A program made the translations under genes and the position numbers. A stretch of DNA of 64,000 nucleotides from a virus. This document shows, one piece after another, positions 32,521 through 53,634 of the stretch. Below the pieces are notes generated by a model. The model was not told where the DNA came from. It saw only the letters and a list, made by a program, of their open reading frames with translations, and searched no databases. Position 1 is the first letter of the stretch; every line of letters begins with the position of its first letter. The stretch covers positions 4,476-68,475 of IMG/VR virus record IMGVR_UViG_3300012347_000106; one strand, written 5' to 3'.

Positions 32521-32667
32521 ATTATATATAGGAGTGTGGGGAAGAGGTGGTGGCGGCTACGACACTCAGCGTAAGCGGACGCGAGGAGTCCCAGTTGCCA
32601 GTTGGACGCCCCGGGGTAGGGTGGGGTTTGGCCTCCAGACTTTTAAGGTTAGGAGTTTGGGTAAGCG

Positions 32668-32696
32668 TTGACAATACCTATATACCTATATACAAT
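32668..32696 (+). promoter_or_regulatory. early promoter P1, sigma70-like (TTGACA-17-TACAAT)
   Basis: Consensus -35 TTGACA, 17-nt spacer, -10 TACAAT, 50 nt upstream of the first early gene. Confidence 0.7.
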
Positions 32697-32745
32697 TGAT
32701 CCCATCGACGCAATACCGCTTCGATACATCCTAAAGGAAATCATC

Positions 32746-33276
32746 ATGTCAGTTATCAATGCATCCATCATCAACGCCGTCATCAAGTCTTTTGAGGGCG
32801 AAGCCAAAGCCATCGCCAAAGCTCGCACGGCTCAGGACAAAGCCATCCAGTCAGCACTCGATGCCATGTTTATCGCTTGCGACAAGCCAAAGGCTGAGTT
32901 TCTCAAAGGTAACGCCAAGACCAATCCAGCACGGGGCCAGATCAAAGGCATGTTCGACGCCATCGTCGAGGCCGGTTACATCAGCAAGTCGTCAGGCGCA
33001 TCGTATCAGTCAGCCTTCTGGATTGCCTTCGAGCAGGGCGTCGAGTTCAAGCGTGATCTGAACAACAAGAAAGACAAGACCGAAGGCGGCGAAGCCAAGA
33101 CAAGCGCCAAAGCATCGGGCGCAGTGCAAAGCACCAGCCGCACCGACTTGGACAAGACACTCAGCAAAGCAATGGCGCAGGCCCGCTTGCTTGGCTTGCT
33201 GGATTTTGCGGCTGACTTGGTTGACTTGTGCCAAGACCGCTTGGATGGTTTCGAGGAAACCGTGCTCAGCAAGTGA
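32746..33276 (+). CDS. early protein, hypothetical (helical, Lys/Ala-rich)
   Basis: The ORF track ORF starts at the TTG of the -35 element. The true start is ATG at 32746 with an AAAGGA SD. 176 aa. Confidence 0.55.
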   Translation: MSVINASIINAVIKSFEGEAKAIAKARTAQDKAIQSALDAMFIACDKPKAEFLKGNAKTNPARGQIKGMFDAIVEAGYISKSSGASYQSAFWIAFEQGVEFKRDLNNKKDKTEGGEAKTSAKASGAVQSTSRTDLDKTLSKAMAQARLLGLLDFAADLVDLCQDRLDGFEETVLSK

Positions 33277-33281
33277 TACCC

Positions 33282-33325
33282 AAGGGCGCAAGCCCTTGCC
33301 GCCCGGCTTCGGCCGGGCTTTTTTT
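33282..33325 (+). terminator. tandem-hairpin intrinsic terminator
   Basis: AAGGGCgcaaGCCCTT, then GCCCGGCttcgGCCGGGC, followed by TTTTTTT. Confidence 0.7.
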
Positions 33326-33475
33326 CGCCTGTACTTTTTGGAGCCCGAGTTTCCCCACGTCTGTGGGGAAACGTCATAGTAGTGCGACCGTGCGGGAGAG
33401 TGAGCGGGAGTACACGCAGCCGAGTGTGAGGGAGTGGCAGGCACCGGGCGACCGCAGCGCCGGGCCGCCGAAAAG

Positions 33476-33491
33476 TTTTAAGCTTAAAAGT
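33476..33491. repeat. palindromic early-region motif copy (variant TTTTAAGCTTAAAAG)
   Basis: Member of the CTTTTAAGGTTAAAAG family. Confidence 0.6.
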
Positions 33492-33613
33492 ATTGCCTTG
33501 TTGTTGTTGCGGAACAGACGTACAAAAAATCAGGGTGCGTTACAAAACCCCTGTATCAGAACTAAAGCAAAATAGCCCACGGAAAAACTGCAATGAAATC
33601 AACAACTTACAGC

Positions 33614-33630
33614 AGAGAGAGAGAGAGAGA
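33614..33630. repeat. (GA)8-9 dinucleotide microsatellite
   Basis: agagagagagagagaga inside the inverted-repeat-bounded element. Confidence 0.8.
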
Positions 33631-33715
33631 TTAGATATTTATTTGTTTATTGTTACTGATGTACAGGCTTTTAGGTATGAAAAGCTAGGAAAGGTCTTTG
33701 GCTCATTGGCAGAAG

Positions 33716-33730
33716 TTTTAATGTTAAAAG
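33716..33730. repeat. palindromic early-region motif copy (variant TTTTAATGTTAAAAG)
   Basis: Inside the inverted-repeat-bounded element. Confidence 0.6.
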
Positions 33731-33962
33731 TTTGGCCCGGTCAAGGGGTCTCTGGCAGGCTCCACAACCCCTGTATCCACGTCACCGTGAAGATAATAGC
33801 ACCCCCGTTCTCCTCAACCCCCTGTGTTTGTGGGGCTTCCACGCAATCACTTTACATTCCTTGTATCGTAGCAACTTTCCCCATTTGTGTACATCTGTTC
33901 CGCAACAACAACCAGCGAACCCGTGATATACTGGGCACCCCAACAACCAGTCAAGGACTACT

Positions 33963-34763
33963 ATGACCGACCCCATGACCTCCATCACCCTCGAAATCCC
34001 CACCGCCGTGGCCCACAAAATCTCCGAGACTGCCCCCGGCACCCTTGCAGAGACGGCACTCATCGCCCTGCGACTCTACCACGGCTTGGGACTCGACGCC
34101 CGCACCACACTCACCGAGCTGGCCACACACCACAGCCTCACCCCTGCCAAAACCCTGCGACTTGCCATTGAGCAACTGAAGGCGGACACCACACGCTTGC
34201 AGCTTGGTACGGGCACGGCTGGCCGACCCATTGTGAACGGCGACCGTGATGCAGATATATATGCCAAGACCCGGACAGGCATCACCCATGCCACCATCGC
34301 CGCTGCGTACGGCATCTCCCTCGTGCGCGTTGGGCAGATCGTGGCCAAGCAACGTGCCATAAATAAGGACACTACCAAACGGGCGACCCGCACCGCCAAT
34401 GACCCGTGGAATATCGGATTAGCTATGGACGCTGGCCTGAGCGCCGAGGCCGCTGCCGCCCGATACAACCTGACTGTGGACGAAGTGGCCGAACGATACG
34501 CCGCCTACCGCGCCAACTTGCCAGCCAACCCCAACATGCTCGACAAGATCAACGCCGGGCGCACCGCAGAGTCTTCGACTCAGGCAGCGTCTTCAACACA
34601 GGAAGTTTTAACCTTAAAAGAACCACCACGCAAACTGGCAGTCATCCCACCATCCATGAGGAACCCTGAACTGTTCGCAGAGGCCAAGCCGATCAAAATC
34701 CCTGACCCAGCCACAGTGGACATGTCCATGTTTGACCCAAACAACCCAGACTTCGCCATCTAA
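33963..34763 (+). CDS. early protein with HTH-like segment, putative DNA-binding regulator
   Basis: 266 aa with an AAGGA SD. The helix-turn-helix-like stretch ATIAAAYGISLVRVGQIVAKQ and a second AARYNLTVDEVAERYAAY segment. Confidence 0.5.
   Translation: MTDPMTSITLEIPTAVAHKISETAPGTLAETALIALRLYHGLGLDARTTLTELATHHSLTPAKTLRLAIEQLKADTTRLQLGTGTAGRPIVNGDRDADIYAKTRTGITHATIAAAYGISLVRVGQIVAKQRAINKDTTKRATRTANDPWNIGLAMDAGLSAEAAAARYNLTVDEVAERYAAYRANLPANPNMLDKINAGRTAESSTQAASSTQEVLTLKEPPRKLAVIPPSMRNPELFAEAKPIKIPDPATVDMSMFDPNNPDFAI
34606..34620. repeat. palindromic early-region motif copy (reverse orientation TTTTAACCTTAAAAG), inside a CDS
   Basis: Inside the 3' part of gene 33963..34763. Confidence 0.6.
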
Positions 34764-34775: not shown

Positions 34776-35027
34776 ATGACAACACCCGCCCCGACCTTTC
34801 ACACCATCGAGCTTGACCTTCCCCTTGATGTGGCCGATGAACTAGCTGCCAAGGCTGGCAGTGTCGATGCTGCCGTGGTTCACGCCCTGCAGGAATACCT
34901 CAAAACCGACTACAACTACAGGGACAAGGTCATCAAACACGTGCACAGCGTAGGCAAAACCGTGGAGGCCATAGCCCGAATCTATGCCATGAGCGAAGCC
35001 GACATCACTGCAATCATCAACAGCTAA
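34776..35027 (+). CDS. hypothetical small protein
   Basis: 83 aa with an AAGGAG SD. Confidence 0.5.
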   Translation: MTTPAPTFHTIELDLPLDVADELAAKAGSVDAAVVHALQEYLKTDYNYRDKVIKHVHSVGKTVEAIARIYAMSEADITAIINS

Positions 35028-35074: not shown

Positions 35075-35103
35075 TGACATATATAGGTATTTGTGATAGA
35101 ATA
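35075..35103 (+). promoter_or_regulatory. early promoter P2, sigma70-like (TTGACA-17-TAGAAT)
   Basis: Same architecture and TATA-rich spacer as P1. Confidence 0.65.
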
Positions 35104-35598
35104 CATATATCGAGTTGAGCATCGTCTCCACTTTACAGCCAGCCTTATCCATGTGCGGCTCATGTTCGTTAACAACCCAGATACCGTTAGGATTAACCAT
35201 AACTTTTAAGGTTAAAGGTTTTCCGATCAAGCCGCCGTTGCACAAGCAAAAGTCGTGTACTAGGAATTACGCCAGACAGAGGGACAGCCACCAAGCATCC
35301 CCGACATGGATATGAGATCAGTCCCCACAGACGAGAAGGCGTCCCGTATAGCCGGGGCATGAGTGTGGAGTACGAGTAGTGTGATGAACATCACCGAAGA
35401 GGAAAGCACCATGCAATGCAAACGCATACTACTTAAATGGTCGGGTTCCTCTGTCAGAAATGAGCCATGAACCCTTGGGGGTGGGACAGCCACCGTGCTG
35501 GATATATCACCCCGACGCAACCTATCGTAGTCCAAGATATTTATATATCTTTCAGCGCATGGGCAACCGTGCGCTGTTGAATATGTAAGGAGAAACAC
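35104..35598 (+). ncRNA. candidate promoter-proximal noncoding RNA / long structured leader (about 490 nt)
   Basis: No credible ORF (the 66-73 aa ORFs have poor composition). It lies downstream of P2, contains one palindromic motif copy (about 35204-35218) and a duplicated GGGACAGCCACC box (about 35282 and about 35482). Confidence 0.3.
35204..35218. repeat. palindromic early-region motif copy
   Basis: TTTTAAGGTTAAAGG in the P2 leader. Confidence 0.6.
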
Positions 35599-35868
35599 AT
35601 GAACGAATACATCTGGGAGTGGCAGCAAGGTGACGGCGACCACATCTGGCTGAGAGATTTTTCAGGGCGACTGGCCCAAGAACGCAACAACAACTCAAGC
35701 TCGGTTGGGTACATCGAGCCGACCAAAGATGGCTGGCTCATAGCATCGTGGAACCCGCACAAGGAGATTGCAACGCTGCCGGACACGATGACCAAGGGTG
35801 AAGTCATGACCGTAGCCAAGACAATACTTTTAAGCTTAAAGCAAACTGGAAGTGAGGGAAGAGAATGA
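35599..35868 (+). CDS. hypothetical early protein
   Basis: 89 aa with an AAGGAG SD. Confidence 0.5.
   Translation: MNEYIWEWQQGDGDHIWLRDFSGRLAQERNNNSSSVGYIEPTKDGWLIASWNPHKEIATLPDTMTKGEVMTVAKTILLSLKQTGSEGRE
35827..35841. repeat. palindromic early-region motif copy (variant CTTTTAAGCTTAAAG)
   Basis: Just upstream of the 35865 start. Confidence 0.55.
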
Positions 35869-36131: not shown

Positions 36132-36367
36132 ACTACTACTGGAGGAACGACGCTCGCACCCCACGCCAGCACTGGTTGCACGTTGACCCCGAAAACATAA
36201 TGATGAGAGTGGCAGGGCTGGTGTATGAGGTCACGCCCGATTCGTTCAGCGTATACGGCGAGGACTTCGAGAAGAACCCCTACGCCCGCAAGTTCCTCGG
36301 CACCATGCCTACGCTCGAAGAAGCCAAGGACATGCTGGTCACCATCACGGCCAGCCAAAACCTTTAA
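36128..36367 (+). CDS. hypothetical early protein
   Basis: Start placed at Met56 of the track ORF 35963..36367 (ATGA overlap with the upstream stop). 79 aa. Confidence 0.45.
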   Translation: MNYYWRNDARTPRQHWLHVDPENIMMRVAGLVYEVTPDSFSVYGEDFEKNPYARKFLGTMPTLEEAKDMLVTITASQNL

Positions 36368-36376
36368 GGTTAAAAG
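36362..36376. repeat. palindromic early-region motif copy
   Basis: CTTTAAGGTTAAAAG, then t, then the ATG of 36378. Confidence 0.65.
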
Positions 36377-36377: not shown

Positions 36378-36638
36378 ATGACCGACCGAGTAATCAAAGA
36401 CGGCTACATCCGCATCGTGCACGACGACAGCGTGATCTGGTACATCGACAACGACAAAGAGAATTCCGAGTTCGTCGTTGCACGGTTCCCCTTTGTGCCT
36501 GACTACCACCTGTGCGACTTCGTGGATGACAACGACGACATGACCTCGTCCGACCTGTGCGAGCGACCCTTGCAACAGTTCAAAACCCTGACCCAAGCCC
36601 TCGCTGTACTCAAACCAACCGAAGGAGAGCAATCATGA
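36378..36638 (+). CDS. hypothetical acidic early protein
   Basis: Start at Met52 of the track ORF, directly after a motif copy (CTTTAAGGTTAAAAGT-ATG). 86 aa. Confidence 0.5.
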   Translation: MTDRVIKDGYIRIVHDDSVIWYIDNDKENSEFVVARFPFVPDYHLCDFVDDNDDMTSSDLCERPLQQFKTLTQALAVLKPTEGEQS

Positions 36639-37372
36639 CAGCACACACCAAACTCAAACTGCACCTCGAACGCTACGCATACAAGCGTGGCCGTAACACA
36701 GGCGAAGCCCCTGCCGATTCATCACGCAGAGGCAAGACACACTTCCGTGTCATCCAAGGTAACGGTGGGCAGATGCTGGTGCGTATGCACAGCGCAGACC
36801 TCATCACCGCCTATGAGGATGGGCGCATCGTGCTCGACACACGAGGCTGGCACGCATCGCCAACAACACGCTCGTGCATGAACGACGCACTGACTAGCTT
36901 CTTCGGCATGGGCTATCTGTTCAGCGTGCGTAAGGGTGGGTACTCGCAGACCGGCGTACGCATGAACGGCAAGACGTACAGGTACTATGACGGGATGGCG
37001 TTCGACGCCGAGGGCAAGCTGATGGGCCAAGCCAAGCAGTTCTCAGCCAAGCGCCCCGACCGTGAAGAAACCGCCGAGTTTCGTTTTGACATTAAACATT
37101 CGGGGTTCGTTGATATGTTCCCTGTTCTGTATGCGGCGGCCGAGGTTCCTGAGAAATCGTGGATTGCAATACCCACGTACAAAATCATGGCCTCTGACGT
37201 TCACTCCAACTACTGGCCTGACCTCGTGGCGCTTACAAAGTACAGCACCTACTGGGCACGGCATTGCAACAAACCATCGCACCCCGATCACAAAGCTGCA
37301 CTGAGGTCACTCATTGCAAGCCAAACCCGAACAATGACCAAGCTCGTCGATACCGACGAGACAGTCTTGTAA
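36635..37372 (+). CDS. hypothetical early protein
   Basis: 245 aa with a GAAGGAG SD and an ATGA overlap. Confidence 0.5.
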   Translation: MTAHTKLKLHLERYAYKRGRNTGEAPADSSRRGKTHFRVIQGNGGQMLVRMHSADLITAYEDGRIVLDTRGWHASPTTRSCMNDALTSFFGMGYLFSVRKGGYSQTGVRMNGKTYRYYDGMAFDAEGKLMGQAKQFSAKRPDREETAEFRFDIKHSGFVDMFPVLYAAAEVPEKSWIAIPTYKIMASDVHSNYWPDLVALTKYSTYWARHCNKPSHPDHKAALRSLIASQTRTMTKLVDTDETVL

Positions 37373-37391
37373 GCCGAGCGAAAGCTCAAAC

Positions 37392-37406
37392 CTTTAATCT
37401 TAAAAC
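37392..37406. repeat. palindromic early-region motif copy (variant CTTTAATCTTAAAAC)
   Basis: Upstream of candidate promoter P3. Confidence 0.5.
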
Positions 37407-37464: not shown

Positions 37465-37944
37465 ATGAACGCAAGTTACCGACACGGACAGTCCCCACGG
37501 GGCGCACAGACCAACATCTACCGACGTTGGCAACACATGATTCAACGCTGTCATAACCCAAAGGACAGAGACTACCCCCGATATGGTGGGCGAGGTATTT
37601 CCGTATGTGATCGTTGGCGATATGCAGACGAGACGCATACTGGGTTCGAGTACTTCCTCCTCGATATGGGGCTACCACCTAGCAGGTCACACTCGATTGA
37701 CCGCAAAGAAGTGGATGGGGATTACAGCCCCGAGAATTGCCGGTGGGCTACGCCTACTGAGCAAGCCAACAACCGTCGAAGCACAAAAATGCTGACCATC
37801 GACGGCGAAACAAAACCGTTATCTGACTGGTGCAAACAATACAGCATCGGCAGTAAGACGGTACTTTACCGCCTCAAGCACAGAGGCATGACCCCTAAAG
37901 AAGCAATCACAACGCCACTTACGTGGACAAAGGAAAAATCATGA
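37465..37944 (+). CDS. putative homing-endonuclease-family DNA-binding protein (YGGRGIxVCDRW motif family)
   Basis: 159 aa. IYRRWQHMIQRCHNPKDRDYPRYGGRGISVCDRW is the signature found in stand-alone phage proteins usually annotated as HNH/homing endonucleases. AGGAG SD. Confidence 0.5.
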   Translation: MNASYRHGQSPRGAQTNIYRRWQHMIQRCHNPKDRDYPRYGGRGISVCDRWRYADETHTGFEYFLLDMGLPPSRSHSIDRKEVDGDYSPENCRWATPTEQANNRRSTKMLTIDGETKPLSDWCKQYSIGSKTVLYRLKHRGMTPKEAITTPLTWTKEKS

Positions 37945-39008
37945 GCATGTCTATCAATCTGAACCAAGCCGCCACCCTGATTCGCAATGTCGGTACGACC
38001 AATACATTGTTGCTTCGCGGCACCCCCGGCATCGGCAAATCATCCATCTTGCAGACACTCGAACGTGAACTGCCGGACTATCAAATCTGCTACATCGACG
38101 TAGCCAACCTCGACCTCGGCGATCTGGGCATGCCTGTGATCGACAAAGACACAATGGTCACCAACTACGCACCCAACGCTCGCTTCGGTGTAGGCAAGGG
38201 CCAGACACGCCCTGTCGTGCTGATGCTCGACGAGTTGGGTAAAGCGTCACGCCCTGTGCTCAACATGCTGTTGCCTGTGATTCTCGAAGGTCGCATCGGT
38301 GATGTGCCCCTGCCTACCGGCTCCATTGTGTTCGGCACAACCAACCTCGACACTGACGGCGTGGGTGACAACATCCCAGCCCATGCGTTCAACCGTATGA
38401 CTGTCGTGACTGTGGCCAACCCATCGGCCGACCAGTGGATTGACTGGGCATCGGGCCACAACGTAGCCCCCGAGGTGATGGCGTTTGCCAAGCAGTACCC
38501 GCAGGTCTTCGACTGCTATGCAGACCTCGACAAGAAAGACAAGAACCCCTACATCTTCAACCCCATGACGGGCAACGTGCGGGCCTTCTGCTCACCTCGT
38601 TCACTGGTCAAAGCATCGAACATCGTCAAGCAACGCAGTGTGCTCGGCACCTCGTTGATTCCAGCCCTCGCAGGTACTGTCGGTGAAGCCGCAGCCCGTG
38701 ACATGGAAGCCCTCGTGAATCTGGCAGATCAGTTGCCACTGTTCGAGAACATCGTGAAGGCTCCGACCAAGACCAAGGTGCCCGATAGCGTAGGTGCCCT
38801 GTTCATCCTTGCGTTCATGCTGGCAGGTCGTGTCGATGCTGACAACCTCGACCCTGTGATGGAGTACGCCGAGCGTATGTCTGCTCAGTCATTCGAGGCG
38901 CATGCCCTGTTCGTTACATCCCTTGCATCCAACCGCGCCAAGGTGGGTATGGCATGTAAGAACCGTAAGTTCACTGCCGCCGCCGCCAAGCTCGGCAAAT
39001 ACTTTTAA
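37941..39008 (+). CDS. MoxR-like AAA+ ATPase
   Basis: Walker A GTPGIGKSS, Walker B VLMLDELGK, sensor/arginine-finger region. Length and architecture fit the MoxR/CbbQ family. Confidence 0.75.
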   Translation: MSMSINLNQAATLIRNVGTTNTLLLRGTPGIGKSSILQTLERELPDYQICYIDVANLDLGDLGMPVIDKDTMVTNYAPNARFGVGKGQTRPVVLMLDELGKASRPVLNMLLPVILEGRIGDVPLPTGSIVFGTTNLDTDGVGDNIPAHAFNRMTVVTVANPSADQWIDWASGHNVAPEVMAFAKQYPQVFDCYADLDKKDKNPYIFNPMTGNVRAFCSPRSLVKASNIVKQRSVLGTSLIPALAGTVGEAAARDMEALVNLADQLPLFENIVKAPTKTKVPDSVGALFILAFMLAGRVDADNLDPVMEYAERMSAQSFEAHALFVTSLASNRAKVGMACKNRKFTAAAAKLGKYF

Positions 39009-39017
39009 GGTTAAAAG
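39002..39017. repeat. palindromic early-region motif copy
   Basis: CTTTTAAGGTTAAAAG, 14 nt before the ATG of 39031. Confidence 0.65.
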
Positions 39018-39970: not shown

Positions 39971-39986
39971 CTTTTAACCTTAAAGG
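39971..39986. repeat. palindromic early-region motif copy (reverse orientation)
   Basis: CTTTTAACCTTAAAGG, 10 nt before the ATG of 39996. Confidence 0.65.
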
Positions 39987-40544: not shown

Positions 40545-40560
40545 CTTTTAACCTTAAAAG
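40545..40560. repeat. palindromic early-region motif copy (reverse orientation)
   Basis: CTTTTAACCTTAAAAG after the stop of 39996..40544. Confidence 0.65.
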
Positions 40561-40586: not shown

Positions 40587-41075
40587 ATGAACACATTAAC
40601 TTATGACCGATTGCGCAAAGTCCTCAACTACGACGCACACACCGGCGTGTTTACTTGGCGAACCAAACTCAGCCGAAAGGTTGTTGTTGGCCGTGAAGCT
40701 GGCACGCTAAAACCCAACGGGTATGTATCCATTCGTATCGACCAAAAAGCGTACTACGCGCATCGCCTTGCGTGGTGCTATGTGTACGGTGACTGGCCGG
40801 ACGAAGAGGTCGACCACATTGATGGGGACAAGACCAACAACTGCATAGCAAATCTCAGGCAGGCCAGCCGTAAGCAAAACATGGAAAACCGTGTTCAGCC
40901 CACTGGCGCGTCTGGGTATCGTGGAGTTTGTTGGCTGAAGGCCAACCAGAAATGGCGGGCCAGTATCGTCCATAACGGAAAAAACATCTACTTAGGATTG
41001 TTCAACACGGCGGAAGAGGCAAGCGCTATGTACCGCGATGCCGCCGCTTTCTTTCATACACACAACAGGAGTTAA
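40587..41075 (+). CDS. HNH endonuclease with C-terminal AP2 DNA-binding domain (homing endonuclease)
   Basis: HNH core (AHRLAWCYVYG...VDHIDGDKTNNCIANLRQASRKQN) plus an AP2-type domain (SGYRGVCWLKANQKWRASIVHNGKNIYLGLFNTAEEASAMYRDAA). Confidence 0.8.
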   Translation: MNTLTYDRLRKVLNYDAHTGVFTWRTKLSRKVVVGREAGTLKPNGYVSIRIDQKAYYAHRLAWCYVYGDWPDEEVDHIDGDKTNNCIANLRQASRKQNMENRVQPTGASGYRGVCWLKANQKWRASIVHNGKNIYLGLFNTAEEASAMYRDAAAFFHTHNRS

Positions 41076-42268: not shown

Positions 42269-42504
42269 GTGAACTCCAGAAGCGGTGGACACGCGTTGAC
42301 CCCGAGGGTGGCGCGACTAGGTGGGTTCTCAAAGGGATAAGCGGGGGGTGGAACCGGGCGGTCATCAAGCGCAATCCCATTAGTGATGAGTGGAGGTTGC
42401 TCATTTGGGGCGACGGGGATTGGGGCAAGCCCATCGACGTAAAAACACTACGCGCTGCCAAAGCCCTCGGCCGTATCCTCGCCGCCACAGCGACAAACAT
42501 TTAA
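42265..42504 (+). CDS. hypothetical protein
   Basis: Start at Met20 of the track ORF (ATGA overlap). 79 aa. Confidence 0.45.
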   Translation: MSELQKRWTRVDPEGGATRWVLKGISGGWNRAVIKRNPISDEWRLLIWGDGDWGKPIDVKTLRAAKALGRILAATATNI

Positions 42505-44836: not shown

Positions 44837-44852
44837 CTTTTAAGGTTAAAAG
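44837..44852. repeat. palindromic early-region motif copy
   Basis: CTTTTAAGGTTAAAAG, then aa, then the ATG of 44855. Confidence 0.65.
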
Positions 44853-45283: not shown

Positions 45284-46194
45284 ACTACATCACTGACATC
45301 AAACCCTCCGCCGTTGCTGGCGTCGCTCGTTCCGCCATGATGGTGGACCTGCACATCTCCGTGTACTCGGGGCGCAAGCAAGACAAGTCAACCCAAGCCG
45401 AGGTCGTGGCCAACAAGGGGGCCAACTCCAAGCGTGCCGCATCCGTGTACAAGAATCTGTTCAGCGAGTGCAAAGAACTCGATGCCCTGACCAAGTTTCA
45501 AGCACGAGCACGGGCCGAGCACTACCGCCTCACACTGCCGTGGAATGACCAAGGCGCACGTCTCTTGCCCACTGCCTCACTGCTGGAGTACCAACAGATC
45601 ATGGGGCGCTATCGCAACGAGTTCGACCTGCTGGTTGATGCGTTCCTCGACAAGTACGACACGCTCGTAGCGGCGGCCGCCTTCCAACTCGGCACGCTGT
45701 TCGACCGCAAGGAATACCTGACACGTTCGCAGGTGTCCCTGCGCTTCCGCATGGAGTCGAGCTTCACACCCCTGCCTACCGGCGGCGACTTCCGTTTAGA
45801 TGTGGAGAGCGAGGTACAGCGCGACCTGATCGCCAAGTACGAAGCCCAGCTCGAAGCCAAGCTGTCACAGGCCAACCGTGATGCGTGGGATCGACTACAC
45901 GATGCGTTGCTGCGCTTGTCTGATCGACTGACCATCGACGAGGACGGCAAGAAGAAAGTGTTCCACGACACCACCGTTACCGGGGCAGTGGAGCTGTGCG
46001 AGCTGCTCACTACTATGAACATCATGAAAGACCCTCAGCTTGAGTCAGCGCGACGTAAGTTAGAGGAAGTATTGTCAGGCATCACACCGAAAGAATTGCG
46101 CGATGAGCACAGCACCCGTATTCAAACCAAGCAGAAAGTTGACGCCATCCTCGATGCCTTCGACTGGGGTAGCGATGACAGCGTGGACGCGTAA
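45280..46194 (+). CDS. hypothetical protein (helical, 304 aa)
   Basis: ATGA overlap upstream. No assignable motif. Confidence 0.5.
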   Translation: MNYITDIKPSAVAGVARSAMMVDLHISVYSGRKQDKSTQAEVVANKGANSKRAASVYKNLFSECKELDALTKFQARARAEHYRLTLPWNDQGARLLPTASLLEYQQIMGRYRNEFDLLVDAFLDKYDTLVAAAAFQLGTLFDRKEYLTRSQVSLRFRMESSFTPLPTGGDFRLDVESEVQRDLIAKYEAQLEAKLSQANRDAWDRLHDALLRLSDRLTIDEDGKKKVFHDTTVTGAVELCELLTTMNIMKDPQLESARRKLEEVLSGITPKELRDEHSTRIQTKQKVDAILDAFDWGSDDSVDA

Positions 46195-46566: not shown

Positions 46567-47052
46567 ATGAGCGAGCTGAATTCTACTCGTCTGCGCGAGC
46601 TTCTTACCTACGACCCCGCAACCGGCATATTTACATGGCGTATTGGCCGCAAAGGGCGCAGCACCAAGGCTGGGGCCCGTGCTGGGCGTCCGCATGTCAA
46701 AGGCTACGAGTGGATTGGTGTAGATGGCGAGCGCATCATGGCGCACCGCATTGCGTGGTGCTACACGCACGGGTACTGGCCACCCCACCAGATCGACCAC
46801 ATTAACGGCGACCGCGCCGATAACCGTTTGAGCAACCTACGGCTTGCGACACCGGCCGAAAATTTGCAGAACAAGAGACACCCCAACGGGGCAAACCCCT
46901 ATCGAGGGGTACGCAATTCCCACGGGCGTTGGCAAGCATCCATCTACGTGAATAAGAAGTTTGTCCACTTAGGAATGTTTGACACCCCAGAAGATGCCCG
47001 CGATGCGTACATACGCGCTAAGCGGGTTCATCACACTTTCAACACCCTCTAA
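46567..47052 (+). CDS. HNH endonuclease with C-terminal AP2 DNA-binding domain (homing endonuclease), paralog of 40587..41075
   Basis: AHRIAWCYTHG...IDHINGDRADNRLSNLRLATPAENLQN plus the AP2-like NPYRGVRNSHGRWQASIYVNKKFVHLGMFDTPEDARDAY. The two paralogs are clearly alignable. Confidence 0.8.
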   Translation: MSELNSTRLRELLTYDPATGIFTWRIGRKGRSTKAGARAGRPHVKGYEWIGVDGERIMAHRIAWCYTHGYWPPHQIDHINGDRADNRLSNLRLATPAENLQNKRHPNGANPYRGVRNSHGRWQASIYVNKKFVHLGMFDTPEDARDAYIRAKRVHHTFNTL

Positions 47053-47061: not shown

Positions 47062-47553
47062 ATGCGATATGAAAATTTGACAGACGACGAACTTATCCGC
47101 GAGGCCGACGGGCAGAGCGGCCTCATCAAAGCACTGAGCGAGCGCCTTGAGATGCGACAGAAGCCACACATGACTGCATTCGAGGAGCAAGCCTTCTTCA
47201 TGCTGGCGTGTGGCCAGACGGTGCATGAGGGCAACCCGGCGCAGGCCGAGATGTATCGTGAACTGATCGACGAAGAGTTCACTGAGATGCTGCAAGCGGA
47301 AGCCGACGGCAACGAAATAGAAGAGTTCGATGCTGTGCTTGACATGATCGTTGTGCTGATCGGTTACGGCCTGTCCCGTGGCTGGCCTATGAACGAAGGC
47401 TGGGCCGAAGTCATGCGATCCAACATGGCCAAGATCGACCCGAAGACAGGCACCGTGCGCCGCCGTGAAGACGGCAAGATTCTCAAGCCCGATGGCTGGA
47501 CACCACCTGATCTGGCGTCCCTCCTCAACCCCGCACAACGCGAAATGTTTTAA
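47062..47553 (+). CDS. MazG-like all-alpha nucleoside triphosphate pyrophosphohydrolase
   Basis: EEFTEMLQAEADGNEIEEFDAVLDMIVVLIGYG matches the MazG/NTP-PPase metal-binding helix pattern. Confidence 0.5.
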   Translation: MRYENLTDDELIREADGQSGLIKALSERLEMRQKPHMTAFEEQAFFMLACGQTVHEGNPAQAEMYRELIDEEFTEMLQAEADGNEIEEFDAVLDMIVVLIGYGLSRGWPMNEGWAEVMRSNMAKIDPKTGTVRRREDGKILKPDGWTPPDLASLLNPAQREMF

Positions 47554-47563
47554 GGTTAAAAGA
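47548..47563. repeat. palindromic early-region motif copy
   Basis: GTTTTAAGGTTAAAAG, then aa, then the ATG of 47565. Confidence 0.65.
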
Positions 47564-47765: not shown

Positions 47766-48569
47766 ATGAAAACTATCCTCACTGCTATCGCTCTCGCATC
47801 CCTGTCCGCTTGCACGCAAATCGACACTGGCAACATTGGCGTCGAGTCAACCTTGGGCCAAGTCAAGAAGGAAACGATGCCACCCGGCGTCTACTTCACC
47901 ATGTTCAAGCGCGTCACTGAGGTGTCCGCCAAAGAGCTGCCCCTGCAACTCAACGACCTGAAGCCACAGACAAAAGACAAGATCACGCTGGCTGACCTCG
48001 ATGTGGACATCTACGTTCAGATGGACCCGAGCAAAGCCGCCGACATCATGACGCGCTGGCCCGGCGATATGGTCGAGTTCAAGGGTGAAGAAGGCGTTCG
48101 TCTCGGCAACAACTACGTCACACGTCAAGCGCGTGAGGCGGTCTACAACGTGGTCTCGCAGTACGGCTCTGATACCGTCCACACTGAGCGCGTGAACATC
48201 GCAGCCAAGGTTGTCGAAGCCCTCCAGAATGACCTCGATGACTCGGCTGGCAAGGGCTGGTATTTTGTCCGCTCCGCCAACGTGCGTAACCTAGTGACCG
48301 ACCCAGCACTTGAGGCTGCAATCAAGGAAAACGCAAACCGCAATTTCCAGATCGCATCCAAGCAAAAGGAAGTTGAGTTGGCCAAGGCTGAAGCAGACCG
48401 CAAGCGCGTTGAAGCCCAAGGCGATGCCGATGCCATCCGACTACGCGCAAGTGCTATCACCACTGCTGGCGGCAAAGAATACGTCGAGCTGAAGGCAATC
48501 GAGAAGTGGGACGGCAGACTGCCTACCACCATGCCCGGCCAAGTCACACCGTTCGTGCACATCAAATAA
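47766..48569 (+). CDS. SPFH/Band-7 (prohibitin/stomatin-like) domain lipoprotein
   Basis: Signal peptide with lipobox LSAC. The SPFH-like core has a coiled-coil tail (QIASKQKEVELAKAEADRKRVEAQGDADAIRLRA). Confidence 0.65.
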   Translation: MKTILTAIALASLSACTQIDTGNIGVESTLGQVKKETMPPGVYFTMFKRVTEVSAKELPLQLNDLKPQTKDKITLADLDVDIYVQMDPSKAADIMTRWPGDMVEFKGEEGVRLGNNYVTRQAREAVYNVVSQYGSDTVHTERVNIAAKVVEALQNDLDDSAGKGWYFVRSANVRNLVTDPALEAAIKENANRNFQIASKQKEVELAKAEADRKRVEAQGDADAIRLRASAITTAGGKEYVELKAIEKWDGRLPTTMPGQVTPFVHIK

Positions 48570-48579: not shown

Positions 48580-49047
48580 ATGAAGTTCAATAAGTTCACC
48601 AAGCAAGCCATCGTCCGTGCAATCATTCAGGACATCCCACCCATCGACAGCGAAGCCCGTGCCAAGGCTATCCACGAAGCCATCGTCAAGGCCATGAGCC
48701 CAGAGGTTCGCAAGCTATTCAAGACCCATCCGAGCGCATTGCGCAAGGCAAGTGTTCGATACGCCAACCCATTCCGCACTTGGGGCAGCGACGTTACCGT
48801 GGGCGATGTGACTGATAAACAGCTCGCGGAAATCTGTAAGCCGTACGAGACGCAAGAGGAGGAACGTGCACAAGCGGAGCGCAAGCTGGGCCGCGCGTTC
48901 GAGGGTATCAACACACTCAAGCAAGCACTGACCACATTCCCTGAGTTCAAGAAGTACTACCCAACCGAGGAAGAGCCGACTAAGAATCTGCCAGCACTCG
49001 CAAACGTCATGGCCGATCTGAGCAAGCTCGGCTGGCCAAAGAAATAA
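48580..49047 (+). CDS. hypothetical protein
   Basis: 155 aa with an AAGGAG SD. Confidence 0.5.
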   Translation: MKFNKFTKQAIVRAIIQDIPPIDSEARAKAIHEAIVKAMSPEVRKLFKTHPSALRKASVRYANPFRTWGSDVTVGDVTDKQLAEICKPYETQEEERAQAERKLGRAFEGINTLKQALTTFPEFKKYYPTEEEPTKNLPALANVMADLSKLGWPKK

Positions 49048-49884: not shown

Positions 49885-50048
49885 AAGACGAAGCATTGAA
49901 GCTGGCGCTGGAAGCGTTGGAAGACAGGACAAGTCTTATGAAGTGGCAAGCAGCCCGTGATGCAGTTAAAAAAGCCTTGGCACAGCCAGAGCATAAGCCG
50001 GTGGCCTACGAAAGCAGAGTCGCTCATATGTTTGGAGATAAGCGATGA
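49881..50048 (+). CDS. small protein paralogous to the N-terminus of the RF-1-domain protein
   Basis: The first roughly 40 nt (atgaaagacgaagcattgaagctggcgctggaagcgttggaag) are nearly identical to the start of the next gene (MKDEALKLALEALE vs MTKDEALKLALEALE). Exact end is +/-1 nt. Confidence 0.35.
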   Translation: MKDEALKLALEALEDRTSLMKWQAARDAVKKALAQPEHKPVAYESRVAHMFGDKR

Positions 50049-50740
50049 CCAAAGACGAAGCATTGAAGCTGGCGCTGGAGGCGTTGGAAGCACACGCAGA
50101 CATCGGCATTAAGTCTGACAAAGCCATCACCGCCATCAAGCAAGCCCTTGCAGCACCTGTGCAGCCTGTGGCGTTTCTTGCAAACGGGACGCGCTTCAAA
50201 ATCAGCTATGACAGCCGCCAAAGCGGAGGCCAGATTCACGGCATTCCTCCAGAACTTGGCGGGCAATGGGTTGCGCTCGTTGCAGCCGAGGATGATTGCC
50301 ACCTGAAGCTCGCCACCCCACCCGCAGCACCTGTGCAGGAGCCGACGAAGCTGAAGCCCGAAGATGTGATTGTCGAAACTTACTCAACCCAAAAAGGCGG
50401 GTTCGTTCTCAAGCCCGACAACGGCGTGCGCTTGATCCACAAGCCAACTGGCATCGTCATGCAGTGCGCCAGTGAGCGCAGCCAGCACCGCAACCGTGAC
50501 CAAGCGTGGCGAGACTTGGAGCGTTACCTCTATGGGGCCAGACCTCAACCCGCAGCACAGCGGCAATGTGTTGGGCTGACTGAGCGAGAGATTGAGCTAC
50601 TTGACGGGATGATTGCGGTGCAACTTGACCATGCAGCGCGGTGCGACGGTATTGCAAACCGCACGATGGCCGAGAAGCAAAAAGGCTGGGACATGGAGCG
50701 CGTGGCGCTACTGCAAAAATTAAAGAAGGAAAAATCATGA
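50045..50740 (+). CDS. peptide-chain-release-factor-like (RF-1 domain, ArfB/class I RF GGQ-domain family) protein
   Basis: VRLIHKPTGIVMQCASERSQHRNRDQAWRDLERYL matches the conserved RF-1 domain core. At the canonical GGQ position the sequence reads KGGF, although two GGQ tripeptides occur about 55 residues upstream. Confidence 0.55.
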   Translation: MTKDEALKLALEALEAHADIGIKSDKAITAIKQALAAPVQPVAFLANGTRFKISYDSRQSGGQIHGIPPELGGQWVALVAAEDDCHLKLATPPAAPVQEPTKLKPEDVIVETYSTQKGGFVLKPDNGVRLIHKPTGIVMQCASERSQHRNRDQAWRDLERYLYGARPQPAAQRQCVGLTEREIELLDGMIAVQLDHAARCDGIANRTMAEKQKGWDMERVALLQKLKKEKS

Positions 50741-51167: not shown

Positions 51168-51376
51168 AAACAGTGATTGAGATGGCGCGTGAGGCTGGCA
51201 TGAACCTTACACCTGCACAGTTTTCTGGTGTGCTTGAGGATGAGATAGACGAGTTTCAGCTTAAGCGTTTTGCCGAGCTTGCCCGTGCTGAAGAAAACGA
51301 AGCCTGTGCCCTGATCGCAGACGAAGCAGCGCCCTATAACGCAGCGGACCTGATCCGCAAAAGGATGAAAAAATGA
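51164..51376 (+). CDS. hypothetical small protein
   Basis: 70 aa, coupled. Confidence 0.4.
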   Translation: MKTVIEMAREAGMNLTPAQFSGVLEDEIDEFQLKRFAELARAEENEACALIADEAAPYNAADLIRKRMKK

Positions 51377-51579
51377 CAACCAAGACCACACACGACCAGC
51401 TTGCGCTGGTGGATGTGTTCCATCACTGGGCTCCGATCGACCCTGCCAAGCCCCCTCCTCGGGGGGTGAAGCTTCTGCTGATTGACGAGCGCTTGGGGGT
51501 GGCTACCATTGGCAGTTACTCACCAACGGCCTCGTGGACACACTACGCGGGGCTACCAACATTCAAGAGGGAACCATGA
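51373..51579 (+). CDS. hypothetical small protein
   Basis: 68 aa, coupled. Confidence 0.4.
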   Translation: MTTKTTHDQLALVDVFHHWAPIDPAKPPPRGVKLLLIDERLGVATIGSYSPTASWTHYAGLPTFKREP

Positions 51580-51758
51580 ACGAAGAGCCCATCTTAGGAT
51601 ACGACAAGGACGGCAACCCGATCCACGAAACCAAGCGTGGCTACATCTACACCGCAGCCTGCATCATGTGCTGTAAGTGCCGGACGCTCATTCGCGGCTC
51701 GGGGGGCCCTATGCACGGGAGCGTTTGCGTACCATGCCACAACAAGGAGAACACATGA
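51576..51758 (+). CDS. small Cys-rich zinc-finger-like protein
   Basis: Start at Met15 of the track ORF. 60 aa with CIMCCKC...CVPCH. Confidence 0.4.
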   Translation: MNEEPILGYDKDGNPIHETKRGYIYTAACIMCCKCRTLIRGSGGPMHGSVCVPCHNKENT

Positions 51759-51892
51759 ACGAAGAAGACCGCCAACTGGACTTGGCCCTTGCCGAGTGTG
51801 AGGCTGAGAACCGCCTACTGCGTGCACGCAACGAACGCCTTGAGCGCGAACTGCGAGAGCTGCGGGCACTGCTTGAGGATGACGGGAAATGA
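51755..51892 (+). CDS. small coiled-coil protein
   Basis: 45-aa ORF (start at Met27 of the track ORF). Leu/Arg/Glu heptads. Confidence 0.3.
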   Translation: MNEEDRQLDLALAECEAENRLLRARNERLERELRELRALLEDDGK

Positions 51893-52158
51893 GCAACACA
51901 AACACAGGTGGGCCAGCGTTTCCAGCATGGGAGCAAGATGAATACGGGTCGAAGTTTTTTAACGAAGGCATGACCCTGCGCGACTACTTTGCTTCCGACG
52001 CGATGAAGGGGATTATTTGCGCACCCAATGCAGACGATGACACGACCCCCGCTGTCTATCTTAGTGACGGCCTCGGGTTTTCTGATGGTATGCGAGGTCG
52101 TATTGCAGTGGCCGCGTACGCAATGGCAGACGCCATGCTAAAAGCGAGAGCCCAATGA
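51889..52158 (+). CDS. hypothetical protein
   Basis: 89 aa. Confidence 0.45.
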   Translation: MSNTNTGGPAFPAWEQDEYGSKFFNEGMTLRDYFASDAMKGIICAPNADDDTTPAVYLSDGLGFSDGMRGRIAVAAYAMADAMLKARAQ

Positions 52159-52625
52159 GAAAGCGCAGTAAGTACCGACCCAAGGGGGTCATACGCGACA
52201 CCATGACTTGGGTGCAGGCTGGCATGAAGCGCGTTGATGCGATCAGTGCTGGCACCACGCTCAAGATCAGGAACCACGATGCCATGAACAGCTTGCGTTT
52301 GGGTGCGGCTACGCGGCGCGAGATCGACGCCATCATCGACGCCATGAATGTGGCCGAGGCTTTGTGCAAACGCGGCACGGGTGGTGACTGGCTGGCGGAG
52401 ATTCAAGCTGCGCAGGATCACCTACTGGAGCTGGCCCGGCGCGGTGTTGCCAACGACATGCGATTCATCGTACGCGGTGAAGAACTCAAGGCGCTCAACC
52501 TTGGCATGGAGATACACGACGCACAGCTTGAAGCTGTGACGGTGCGCGAGTTGGAACTCGCCATGAATGATGTAATGGAAAACCTACGCCTCAAGAAAAT
52601 GCGGCACATTGTGGAGACAGTATGA
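52155..52625 (+). CDS. hypothetical protein
   Basis: 156 aa. Confidence 0.5.
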   Translation: MRKRSKYRPKGVIRDTMTWVQAGMKRVDAISAGTTLKIRNHDAMNSLRLGAATRREIDAIIDAMNVAEALCKRGTGGDWLAEIQAAQDHLLELARRGVANDMRFIVRGEELKALNLGMEIHDAQLEAVTVRELELAMNDVMENLRLKKMRHIVETV

Positions 52626-52858
52626 CTTACCCAGAGACATGGCCTGATGGCACCCCCAAGTCGATGAACAACGCCTTCAACTGGCGTGTCGGAGAGGCTA
52701 CGGCCGTCCCCTTCGTTGCAAACAAGAACCTACGCGCACGCGACCTGCACTCCAATGGAAACATCTACACCTACACCAAAGCCGCGAAGCCGTCGAACAA
52801 GTTCACCGGCGGCAAGCCGCCCAAAGGCAACAAAATGTTCACCATCAAAAAGCAGTAA
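52622..52858 (+). CDS. hypothetical protein
   Basis: 78 aa. Confidence 0.45.
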   Translation: MTYPETWPDGTPKSMNNAFNWRVGEATAVPFVANKNLRARDLHSNGNIYTYTKAAKPSNKFTGGKPPKGNKMFTIKKQ

Positions 52859-52939
52859 CCGACTGTGGCCGTTTCCGGTCGTCATCGGTACACTACCGTT
52901 CCTTGAAATCCCACTCCCACCAATCGAAGAAGCCCTCCT

Positions 52940-53254
52940 ATGACACAAATCGAAATGTTTCCTGACGCCCCGAACCCTACCGACGTTGACGCTGTGCTTG
53001 CCCAGCGAGGCAGCCGCTACGGTAAATTCATTGACGTCTCCATAGCCACGGTGGCCATCCAAGAAGCGGTGTACGCCAACATGGCAGCCGACAAAATCAA
53101 CTCACTGGACCCAGATATGTCTGTTGCCATCGACATGATCTGTCACAAACTGGCCCGCATAGCTGTCGGTGATGCCGAGTACGTTGACAACTGGGTTGAC
53201 ATTGCAGGCTACGCTAAGCTCGTAGCCGAGCGGCTTGAAGGGCGGATACTCTGA
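52940..53254 (+). CDS. hypothetical protein
   Basis: 104 aa. Confidence 0.45.
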   Translation: MTQIEMFPDAPNPTDVDAVLAQRGSRYGKFIDVSIATVAIQEAVYANMAADKINSLDPDMSVAIDMICHKLARIAVGDAEYVDNWVDIAGYAKLVAERLEGRIL

Positions 53255-53634
53255 TGGCAACGCCTGAGTCAAAGGTCAAGGCCAAAATCCACGCACTGCT
53301 CAAGAAGCACAAGGCGTATGCAGTCAACTACATCGGCGGCATCTCTGCCAACAACGGCACGCCTGACATCCTTGCGTGCCTCAACGGGCGGTTCATCGGC
53401 ATCGAAGCCAAGGCTGGCAAGAACAAGCCGACCGACCTGCAAACTCTTAACCTTAAAAGAATTGACGAAGCTGGCGGTCTGGCATTGGTCATCAATGAAG
53501 AGAACCTCAACCAACTGGAGGACATCCTTGAAGCACCCCACCCCCGATCCAATTACCAGCTTTTTGCAAGACCACTCACCGAAACTGACACCGGAACAGG
53601 AACGCCGGTTAAACGCAAACCTAAGGAGGCGTGA
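53254..53634 (+). CDS. VRR-NUC domain nuclease (PD-(D/E)xK)
   Basis: GTPDILAC...FIGIEAKAGKNKPTDLQ gives the PD...E.K catalytic triad arrangement of VRR-NUC. Confidence 0.65.
   Translation: MATPESKVKAKIHALLKKHKAYAVNYIGGISANNGTPDILACLNGRFIGIEAKAGKNKPTDLQTLNLKRIDEAGGLALVINEENLNQLEDILEAPHPRSNYQLFARPLTETDTGTGTPVKRKPKEA
53445..53459. repeat. palindromic early-region motif copy (reverse orientation) inside VRR-NUC CDS
   Basis: TCTTAACCTTAAAAG within 53254..53634. Confidence 0.5.

Follow-up and report, generated by a model that had tools for sequence, protein, structure and literature searches.

A dispersed palindrome with clade-specific sequence in the early arm of an uncultured tailed phage: candidate regulatory sites

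The window analysed here is a stretch of 64,000 nucleotides of viral DNA (IMG/VR record IMGVR_UViG_3300012347_000106, positions 4,476 to 68,475 of that record), and the subject of this study is a palindrome that recurs in its early arm. The window covers the greater part of an uncultured tailed phage's genome, which has 55-60% GC. Structural and packaging genes, including those of the portal (27829-30291) and of the large terminase (30301-31818), are located on the minus strand between positions 1 and 32439 (late arm). The early and replication arm is on the plus strand and begins at 32668. It carries the genes of a MoxR-like ATPase (37941-39008), of a VWA/DUF2201 protein (41078-42268) and of a DNA polymerase (54182-56083), as well as exonuclease, helicase and primase genes. 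Megablast of the window against 50,697 phage records found no relative. At the protein level relatives are merely distant, the ATPase being nearest to that of N4-like phages with about 25% identity. The gene order of the window is syntenic with that of N4: ATPase, VWA protein, helicase, polymerase, exonuclease and primase are on one arm, and the opposite arm ends with the gene of a giant ejection protein. N4 gp24 and gp25 are the counterparts of the ATPase and VWA proteins. The PHROGs label of the VWA protein, “HNH endonuclease” (phrog_1314), is unsupported by Pfam, which gives DUF2201_N and a VWA-like domain.

A pattern search was run with CTTTTAAGGTTAAAAG on both strands, with shuffled sequence as control. 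At up to two mismatches, it returned 17 strand matches that correspond to 13 distinct sites, all within 32640-53459; the shuffles gave a mean of 0.01 match and a maximum of 1. The core TTTAASSTTAAA at up to one mismatch is found at 14 sites for 0.18 expected, and CTTTTAASSTTAAAAG at up to three mismatches at 15 sites in the same interval. Fourteen of these 15 sites are in the 32.6-47.6 kb region and one outlier (53444) precedes the replication module. At up to three mismatches, no site is present in the late arm (1-32400). This palindrome is the sole over-represented word of the whole window. The original prediction, made by a model from the letters of the window, had announced at least 13 copies restricted to the early arm, and had named comparable counts in the late arm or in shuffled sequence as a ground for giving the motif up. 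Both the number and the restriction hold. Nine of the 15 sites are at gene junctions, often overlapping a stop codon, and in four of these nine the upstream gene stops on the TAA of the motif. Four sites are non-coding or promoter-proximal and three are within genes.

Site 1 (32640-32655, CTTTTAAGGTTAGGAG) ends 12 nt upstream of the -35 element (TTGACA, 32668) of promoter P1, a position where a clade-specific copy is seen in 10 relatives (loci designated below by L numbers). Sites 2 (33475-33490, GTTTTAAGCTTAAAAG) and 3 (33715-33730, GTTTTAATGTTAAAAG) are in the non-coding stretch that follows a terminator (33301-33325), the second of them about 200 nt upstream of an extended -10 promoter (TGaTATACT, 33924-33932). 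Site 4 (34605-34620, GTTTTAACCTTAAAAG) is inside the gene of a Mor-like helix-turn-helix protein (33963-34763), 156 nt before the next start codon. Site 5 (35203-35218, CTTTTAAGGTTAAAGG) comes about 95 nt after the P2 start, in a non-coding RNA region that is conserved, and its copy in relatives is each clade's own motif. Site 6 (35827-35842, CTTTTAAGCTTAAAGC) is part of gene 35599-35868, encodes LLSLK there and is separated by 22 nt from the ATG at 35865; orthologous in-gene copies carry the clade motif in L077, L078, L082, L107 and L080. At site 7 (36361-36376, CCTTTAAGGTTAAAAG), the upstream stop codon TAA lies within the motif, the ATG (36378) comes 1 nt after it and the AAGG of the motif is the Shine-Dalgarno sequence. 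Site 8 (37391-37406, CCTTTAATCTTAAAAC) ends 7 nt upstream of the -35 element (TAGACA, 37414) of P3, the promoter of an inserted HNH gene and of the ATPase gene.

Site 9 (39002-39017), a perfect CTTTTAAGGTTAAAAG, contains the stop codon of the ATPase gene; the next gene has its own GGAG and starts 13 nt after the motif (ATG 39031). Site 10 (39971-39986, CTTTTAACCTTAAAGG) has a CC centre and an ATG 9 nt downstream (39996). Site 11 (40545-40560, CTTTTAACCTTAAAAG) is followed by TATAAT (40575) and by an inserted HNH-AP2 gene (40587). In relatives lacking this insert, the copy stands directly before the VWA/DUF2201 gene. Site 12 (42498-42513, CATTTAAGGTTAAAAG) includes the upstream stop codon and is 1 nt from the ATG at 42515. 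Site 13 (44837-44852), also a perfect copy, is 2 nt from the ATG (44855) of a DUF7448 gene, after which comes the conserved 304-aa gene. Site 14 (47547-47562, GTTTTAAGGTTAAAAG) contains the stop codon of a MazG-like gene, with an ATG 2 nt after (47565). Site 15 (53444-53459, CTCTTAACCTTAAAAG) is within an Hjc-like resolvase gene (53254-53634), upstream of the DNA-polymerase module; the orthologous in-gene copy of L082 (16294) reads TCTAATCTTAGA. The distances to start codons given in the original prediction are right, and two of its coordinates need a shift of one position (36361 for 36362, 47547 for 47548).

The anatomy of the element was derived from 110 non-identical copies of the window clade (clade A), taken from the window and nine close relatives. 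The full element spans about 22 bp, WWW-S-TTTTAA-SS-TTAAAA-S-WWW, with invariant arms. Positions 1 and 16 of the 16-mer are each limited to G or C and their pairing is not required (CG 47, CC 27, GG 25, GC 9), so that 52 of the 110 sites cannot pair there. At positions 2 and 15, C-A and A-A mismatches number 16 and U-G pairs 13. Arm changes comprise 22 A-to-G in the 3' arm and 11 T-to-C in the 5' arm. The flanks are AAA...TTT; copies that do not adjoin an ATG have AAA upstream and mostly TTT downstream. A start codon is found at most 60 nt downstream in 84% of the copies and within about 3 nt in 43%. Where an ATG follows the 16-mer by 0-3 nt (40 copies), the centre is always GG. The remaining 70 show no orientation bias (CC 29, GG 20, GC 13), and CC- and GC-centred copies, which hold no Shine-Dalgarno sequence, are followed by a GGAG of their own. 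The GG orientation of 40 out of 40 copies beside an ATG indicates that their AAGG serves as Shine-Dalgarno sequence. It also places the motif within the translated mRNA of those genes, which speaks against a transcription start downstream of it. Judged from these alignments, the element itself is two-fold symmetric and orientation-neutral, and its use in ribosome binding appears to be a secondary adaptation.

Dyad symmetry and the use of both orientations had been predicted correctly. The predicted length of 15-16 bp fits the 16-mer and falls short of the conserved element; a GG/CC core was rightly called, and GC, TG and TC centres occur too. The view that the motif is not a pure Shine-Dalgarno variant is borne out by its symmetry and by the copies away from starts, with the qualification that about 40% of the copies double as ribosome-binding sites.

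Relatives were collected by an exact-motif scan of IMG/VR, then by a protein-guided scan with the ATPase, giving about 40 loci with 42-97% ATPase identity. The genes of the ATPase, the VWA/DUF2201 protein and the 304-aa protein (45280-46194, plus strand) are core genes of the family down to its most distant clades, and that of a 245-aa protein (36635-37372, plus strand) is common to the closer clades. Nearly every locus has, in the corresponding region, several copies of a palindrome of its own. Altogether eleven versions, with TAA-N-TTA as their basis, were found: TTTAA-SS-TTAAA in the window clade, TCTAA-GC-TTAGA in L077-79 and L082, TCTAATATTAGA in L080, TCTAACGTTAGA in L107, CGTAA-SS-TTACG in L085, TCTAA-N3-TTAGA in L087, TTAAC-CA-GTTAA in L083, CTAACAWTGTTAG in L091-98, CTAACATGTTAG in L108, TGTTTAAACA in L099-102 and TTAGAT-N3-ATCTAA in L090. 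Some of them (TGTTTAAACA, TCTAATATTAGA) have no spacer and cannot form a useful hairpin. At the junction after the ATPase gene, for instance, the window has TTTTAAGGTTAAAAG, L077 has TCTAAGGTTAGA, L107 has TCTAACGTTAGA and L087 has TCTAACCATTAGA. Clade-specific copies recur at other orthologous places too: one is immediately upstream of the P1 -35 element, others precede the genes of the ATPase, the VWA protein and the 304-aa protein, one is within the conserved non-coding RNA, and two coding sequences, one of them resolvase-like, contain a copy. In the in-gene copies the encoded peptide shifts with the clade motif (LLSLK, DLSLE, DLILD, LLTLE). In clade J, the motif fills the spacer between the Shine-Dalgarno sequence and the ATG. 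GC-rich terminator-like hairpins are located directly upstream of the motif in L090, L093, L097 and L099.

Comparison of L085 with L086 is informative. Their DNA is 90-95% identical over most of the locus, and the coding sequences match right to the stop and start codons. The spacers of about 50 bp before the ATPase and VWA genes are wholly replaced and carry different palindromes. L086 has the new motif type at eight sites in its left 6 kb and retains the old type farther right; its first early gene (E1, described below) is swapped relative to L085 along with the motif type. Such replacement of cassettes between near-identical genomes points to strong selection on the motif type as such. Within one genome, the likeness among copies is limited to about 20-23 bp, with no longer cassette and no terminal repeats. 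One relative of lower GC content (0.45), L089, is without the palindrome. It has three near-identical sigma-70 cassettes (841-900, 1169-1228 and 3170-3229), TTTACT-17-TATAAT followed by TACCCTATCGTAA, which precede the genes of the ATPase and of the VWA protein and one other gene.

Five free-standing genes of homing-endonuclease type are present in the window, at 37465-37944, 40587-41075, 46567-47052 and 56780-57064 on the plus strand and at 9201-9917 on the minus strand. Three are HNH, one is an HNH fragment and one is NUMOD3; they are absent from most relatives. HNH genes are sporadic in the family while the motif is universal. Two of them (37465 and 40587) are inserted exactly between the palindrome and its conserved gene, each with its own -10 element. 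That such insertions are tolerated fits a transcription-level element better than a translational one.

Several non-coding features surround the sites. Downstream of P2 (TTGACA at 35074, TGaTAGAAT at 35094-35102), a region of about 480 nt (35108-35598, plus strand) is conserved in clades A, B and D. Compensatory changes are evident in it: RNAalifold gave changes on both sides in 22 of 48 predicted pairs, including long-range pairs, and searches of Rfam gave no match at the gathering threshold or at E up to 5, save terminator look-alikes. This is probably a new structured phage RNA, which carries one copy of the clade palindrome. The E1 terminator is followed by a non-coding stretch of 650 bp (33316-33962) that looks like an origin. 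Besides two copies of the motif, it has a (GA)7 run and an AT-rich patch, as well as three CCCCTGTATC-like repeats and, at 33499 and 33897, an inverted repeat of 17 bp. In the equivalent region, L085 and L086 have GTTAC repeats, and L088 has about nine DnaA boxes (TTATCCACA) just upstream of E1. About 100 nt of non-coding DNA ahead of site 1 and P1 (~32540-32640, “...CACTCAGCGTAAGCGGACG.GAGGAGTCCCAG...GGGTGGGGT...”) form a block that is kept in clades A, D, E, F and G despite differing flanks. It could be the site of a Mor-type activator, a genome end or a packaging (pac) site. The divergent region that separates the two arms has a perfect palindrome of 26 bp, CCCAATATCGGAATTCCGATATTGGG (32491-32516), next to minus-strand TATATATAAT. 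Relatives have other long palindromes at this place (GTCGACGACATTGATGTCGTCGA-like in L070, repeated CATGTACGTTTTTT in L081 and L071), and possible roles of the element are operator of a late promoter, 5' hairpin and packaging signal. Farther along the early arm, a 231-aa protein (50045-50740, plus strand) has an RF-1 (peptidyl-tRNA hydrolase / release-factor) domain, unusual in phage. Near it are the genes of a MazG-like pyrophosphatase (47062-47553), an SPFH/Band 7 protein (47766-48569) and an Nmad5-domain protein (48580-49047).

Strong sigma-70 promoters of the window are found only at 32668 (P1), 35074 (P2), 37414 (P3) and 59026, in addition to the extended -10 promoter at 33924. The promoter at 59026-59054 (plus strand, TTGACA-16-TATAAT), before a 92-aa gene deep in the replication module, is the sole clear host-type promoter from 37.4 kb to the window end. 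Searches with Pfam, PHROGs and phmmer revealed no phage RNA polymerase, sigma factor or homologue of N4 gp2, gp15 or gp16, and phmmer with N4 gp1, gp2, gp15, gp16, gp30, gp50, gp51 and gp52 gave no match. Transcription is therefore attributed to the host polymerase. The giant late gene (2-1579, minus strand) occupies the position of the N4 virion RNA polymerase gene (gp50). It runs off the left edge of the window, which holds the first 526 residues of the protein; in relatives L129, L133, L137, L138 and L153 the protein has 1,775-2,095 aa, so that the genome would be about 4-5 kb longer than the window. After a conserved N-terminal part comes a long linker rich in Pro, Ala and Glu; the C-terminal region contains Pfam LPD38. 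The N-terminal part shows a weak similarity, over 64 residues, to residues 390-454 of the N4 virion RNA polymerase (its N-terminal domain) and a weak match to phrog_2206. As a candidate virion RNA polymerase the protein was rejected: no polymerase domain was found in it, and it carries LPD38.

A conventional promoter at the motif was also rejected. A -10 element at a fixed downstream distance is seen only at 40545, where it belongs to the inserted HNH gene. Mor/C-type promoters (phage Mu) have a dyad near -43 and a -10 element with a poor -35; a suitable -10 is again present only at 40545. TAA-NN-T can be read as a mimic of TAnnnT where a clade's spacer has 2 nt; clades F, G, H and J do not allow this reading, and the property is not general. 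The original prediction had argued that too little room is left for a promoter; for a conventional promoter, this argument is strengthened by the constant GG orientation beside ATG, which makes the motif part of the mRNA.

Our preferred, tentative reading is that the palindromes are operator or roadblock sites to which a fast-evolving dimeric regulator of the phage would bind as DNA, site and protein evolving in step; use in ribosome binding would be secondary. We hold this reading to be quite possible, short of probable. Recognition as double-stranded DNA is favoured by the copy upstream of P1, which is outside the transcript, by the palindromes with zero spacer, by outer positions constrained in composition and not in pairing, by the free orientation of the centre outside the Shine-Dalgarno role and by the tolerated homing endonuclease genes. 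Comparative evidence thus favours the DNA-level protein-binding site of the original prediction and disfavours its RNA hairpin; nothing supports its two further suggestions, a nucleoid-protein exclusion site and a recombination hotspot independent of homing endonuclease genes. A symmetric site in the mRNA, 0-30 nt from the start codon, is a misfit for an activator-dependent sigma-70 promoter, which in turn favours an operator or roadblock. What the data show is that the sites are real and symmetric, that their positions hold from clade to clade, that their sequence is clade-specific, that cassettes are replaced between near-identical genomes and that AAGG is used as Shine-Dalgarno sequence. 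The binding of a protein, any candidate for that protein and the negative or positive sense of its effect go beyond these facts and are inferred.

A phage-encoded dimeric regulator would bind the dyad-symmetric double-stranded site of about 22 bp at some 15 places, at early and middle gene starts and beside host-type early promoters, over the first 15 kb or so of the early arm. The bound protein would act on the host RNA polymerase and would shut off, or gate, read-through of the long early transcripts from P1-P3, by analogy with the stoperators of Cluster A mycobacteriophages. Site and regulator would have changed specificity in concert, and repeatedly within the family, much like immunity specificities. 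Since the site has to fit into very short intergenic gaps, the TAA of the motif often doubles as the upstream stop codon, and the AAGG of GG-oriented copies has been co-opted as the ribosome-binding site of the downstream gene.

Stoperators of Cluster A mycobacteriophages such as L5 and Bxb1 are gene-boundary operators that co-evolve with their repressor (PMC6550527, PMC9283540). They are asymmetric 13-bp sites with a strand bias, present on both arms and bound by the monomeric immunity repressor of temperate phages (PMC6550527, PMC9283540). Like them, the sites of the window occur as tens of dispersed copies, in short gaps or overlapping stop and start codons, with a subgroup-specific sequence. 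In contrast, the window sites are dyad-symmetric and limited to the early arm, with no sign of lysogeny and no repressor found. The many copies at gene boundaries are thus shared, and the asymmetric, orientation-biased site is not. Lineage-specific sites are represented by eleven clade versions, with which E1 correlates only partly. Pfam and PHROGs revealed neither a cognate repressor nor an integrase that would go with a temperate life style, and an unrecognisable binder is possible. A comparable picture is given by the KorB OB operators of IncP plasmids (TTTAGCSGCTAAA), palindromes of the ParB type of about 13-16 bp in a dozen copies, bound by a dimer and used for global repression. Palindrome length, copy number, varied distances to promoters and the half-site style TTTAG/CTAAA are similar. 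The differences are that the host replicon is a phage and not a plasmid, and that no protein of the ParB/KorB family was found in the window: none of the open reading frames scanned encodes ParB or a ParB-like nuclease domain.

The best candidate for a site-binding factor is E1, the product of the first early gene (32746-33276, plus strand), and it is a weak one. E1 is an all-helical, hypervariable protein of 176 aa, and site 1 is carried by its own promoter. Its build is modular: the N-terminal and central part varies and the C-terminal domain is conserved. No other hypervariable protein is found in most clades. A tentative rule that linked E1 residues (Y-Q versus Y-A) to motif type is broken by L118. 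No family match was obtained for E1 and a profile search of the PDB was empty; a second large protein search gave close homologues only. The two tandem Mor-like helix-turn-helix proteins (33963-34763 and 34776-35027; weak matches) were ruled out as specificity determinants, since their recognition helices are conserved across clades with different motifs. Phylogenetic profiling of open reading frame families within ±10 kb revealed no family present in every motif-bearing clade and absent from the three motif-less clades.

Several observations weigh against operator or roadblock sites. No binding protein emerged among the early-arm candidates, that is the Mor-like proteins, E1 and the profiled families. 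E1 type and half-site correlate only in part, every beta-type E1 going with TCTAA, and the AlphaFold2 model of E1 is poor (predicted local distance difference test, pLDDT, of 54) and unfit for structure search. Pfam and PHROGs revealed no integrase and no repressor, and a search of 185,579 species genomes found no prophage copies, just two short fragments of metagenome-assembled genomes; the temperate logic of stoperators is therefore not directly applicable. Two motif types coexist in L086. The spacing between the site and the -35 element varies: it is about 20 bp in some clades, about 10 in others and about 15 at P3. Finally, the sigma-70 cassettes of L089 at the same junctions and the GC-rich hairpins upstream of the motif suggest that these junctions are starts of transcription units, which would favour a promoter.

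A phage-specific promoter in the style of N4 is accordingly the first alternative, a serious one, and we consider it rather unlikely. The palindrome would start middle transcription units, perhaps in a melted or extruded form, and a phage factor would recruit RNA polymerase, with E1 acting like N4 gp2 or LUZ7 Drc. Inverted-repeat promoters are indeed known: N4 early promoters are inverted repeats centred at -11 (PMC4496689) and the middle promoters of LUZ7 consist of a hairpin some 15 bp ahead of the start (PMC9163698). Promoters of the N4 virion RNA polymerase and of LUZ7 RNAPII resemble the window sites as short, lineage-specific inverted repeats of early or middle genes, on one arm of genomes with N4-like order, and co-diversification of promoter and polymerase specificities is known. 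The N4-syntenic architecture with its giant ejection protein last on the opposite arm, the weak similarity of that protein to the N-terminal domain of the N4 polymerase, the L089 cassettes and the hairpins directly upstream of the motif in four relatives also speak for this alternative. So does the lack of a clear sigma-70 promoter between 37.4 and 59 kb, as does the fact that no word but the palindrome is repeated. In geometry, the resemblance to N4 stem-loops (5-7-bp stem, 3-4-nt loop) is partial: arms here are 5-7 bp and centres 0-5 nt, several clades are spacerless and the outer positions do not keep their pairing. Against this alternative, Pfam, PHROGs and phmmer gave neither a virion RNA polymerase nor a heterodimeric RNAPII, a sigma factor or a homologue of gp2, and the giant protein has LPD38 and no polymerase domain. 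The AT-rich arms do not flank a GC-rich loop, copies are part of the mRNA at 0-30 nt from start codons, and consensus sigma-70 promoters drive the first genes, one of them with a copy upstream. A perfectly symmetric site of 18-22 bp cannot alone set the direction of transcription. The GG orientation beside ATG in 40 of 40 copies speaks against a start at the 3' edge of the motif, and in clade J the motif stands between the Shine-Dalgarno sequence and the ATG.

A broader view would join parts of both schemes. A lytic family with N4-like architecture and without virion RNA polymerase would use a rapidly switching “address code”, in which the palindrome and an unrecognisable early protein direct or gate the host polymerase at about 15 gene starts, and which diversifies by replacement of intergenic cassettes between otherwise near-identical genomes. 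E1 might be the early protein, acting like N4 gp2 or LUZ7 Drc. The driving force would be an immunity-like arms race between co-infecting virulent phages, and the 480-nt non-coding RNA may participate. We regard this view as speculative and unlikely.

An element acting at the RNA level is improbable. In the ribosome-binding region of early messages, a phage RNA-binding protein or nuclease, on the model of T4 RegA and RegB, could recognise it as a translational operator or as a signal for processing or stability, or it could pair with the copy held by the abundant non-coding RNA, which self-complementarity of the palindrome would allow. Proximity to start codons (84% within 60 nt, 43% within about 3 nt), the clade J arrangement, the location of every copy on the transcribed early arm and the structured RNA behind the strong P2, whose copy co-varies with the clade motif, are consistent with this idea. 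On the other hand, the conserved copy upstream of the P1 -35 element should not be transcribed on this strand. An RNA hairpin would keep its pairing through compensatory or wobble changes and a fixed orientation; here the outer positions need no pairing, zero-spacer palindromes cannot fold and both orientations are used. Equal use of GG and CC outside the Shine-Dalgarno role makes no sense for a loop or for pairing with a GG-centred non-coding RNA, and homing endonuclease genes are tolerated between motif and gene. The excess of A-to-G changes in the 3' arm (22, for 11 T-to-C in the 5' arm), another point for this idea, is explained by creation of the Shine-Dalgarno sequence AAAGG and by repeated counting of orthologous copies.

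It is very unlikely that the palindrome marks the boundary of a mobile or recombinogenic cassette, kept uniform by copy-and-paste or gene conversion, or that it is a structural DNA site for replication, partition or genome ejection. Mobile regulatory cassettes do exist in T4-type phages. Whole intergenic cassettes are replaced between L085 and L086, L086 has two motif families, three HNH genes adjoin motif-bearing junctions, two copies flank the origin-like non-coding stretch and DnaA boxes are found in the equivalent region of L088. Yet the likeness among copies is just about 20-23 bp without terminal repeats, positions are orthologous down to 42% ATPase identity, unlike insertion polymorphisms, and in-gene copies are kept at a coding cost. 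HNH genes are sporadic where the motif is universal, and neither ParB nor a transposase or recombinase was found in the open reading frames scanned. Promoter early stem-loop (PeSL) cassettes of T4 are repeated intergenic elements that behave as exchangeable regulatory cassettes. Repeated elements are also described at early-region gene boundaries of the halovirus HF2 (PMC8707807). Both resemble the window element as repeated early-region gene-boundary elements behaving like exchangeable regulatory cassettes; they differ in being 29-60 bp long with recognisable promoters, for a unit of about 22 bp without -10 or -35 elements here.

A merely AT-rich ribosome-binding or translational-enhancer sequence with no other role would account for the AAGG of all 40 ATG-adjacent copies and for an AU-rich context in a genome of 55-60% GC, and is nevertheless already contradicted, to the point of having hardly any chance, by comparative data: CC- and GC-centred copies without Shine-Dalgarno sequence precede a GGAG of their own, copies stand upstream of promoters, in non-coding DNA and inside genes, centres in relatives are not Shine-Dalgarno-like (TCTAATATTAGA, CTAACATGTTAG, TGTTTAAACA) and the palindromic symmetry is strict. 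Such a sequence would be purine-rich, in one orientation, 5-10 nt upstream of every start, which can be said of only 40 of the 110 clade-A copies. Start-associated sequences and their extended form (SAS/ESAS) in Cluster K mycobacteriophages, asymmetric 13-mers built around GGAG whose function is unproven (PMC3203893), are likewise genome-specific motifs immediately upstream of many starts that include the ribosome-binding site. SAS are asymmetric and confined to 3-8 nt upstream of starts; the window element is palindromic, is also found away from starts and has both centre orientations.

Coming back to operator or roadblock sites, the window element appears to lack defining features both of stoperators (asymmetry, temperate repressor) and of N4 promoters (phage polymerase). 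By analogy, its closest functional counterpart would be the Cluster A stoperators and its closest evolutionary counterpart the inverted-repeat promoters of N4-like phages. As far as sequence comparison can tell, it belongs to a class of phage-specific dispersed regulatory sites with an unusually clear record of concerted specificity switching.

Phages of this type are abundant in freshwater metagenomes, E1 alone having about 590 relatives in the protein collection; freshwater Betaproteobacteria such as Fluviibacter are candidate hosts. In annotation pipelines, such sites are not to be taken for plain ribosome-binding sites. The palindrome provides a ready map of regulatory units in phages without cultured relative, and eleven specificities together with one two-type genome constitute a natural experiment for identifying the cognate factor and the rules of DNA recognition. 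Were the sites promoters, they would show an N4-type programme running without the polymerases of N4. If they are operators of virulent phages that diversify like immunity regions, the concept of stoperators and heteroimmunity would extend beyond temperate actinophages.

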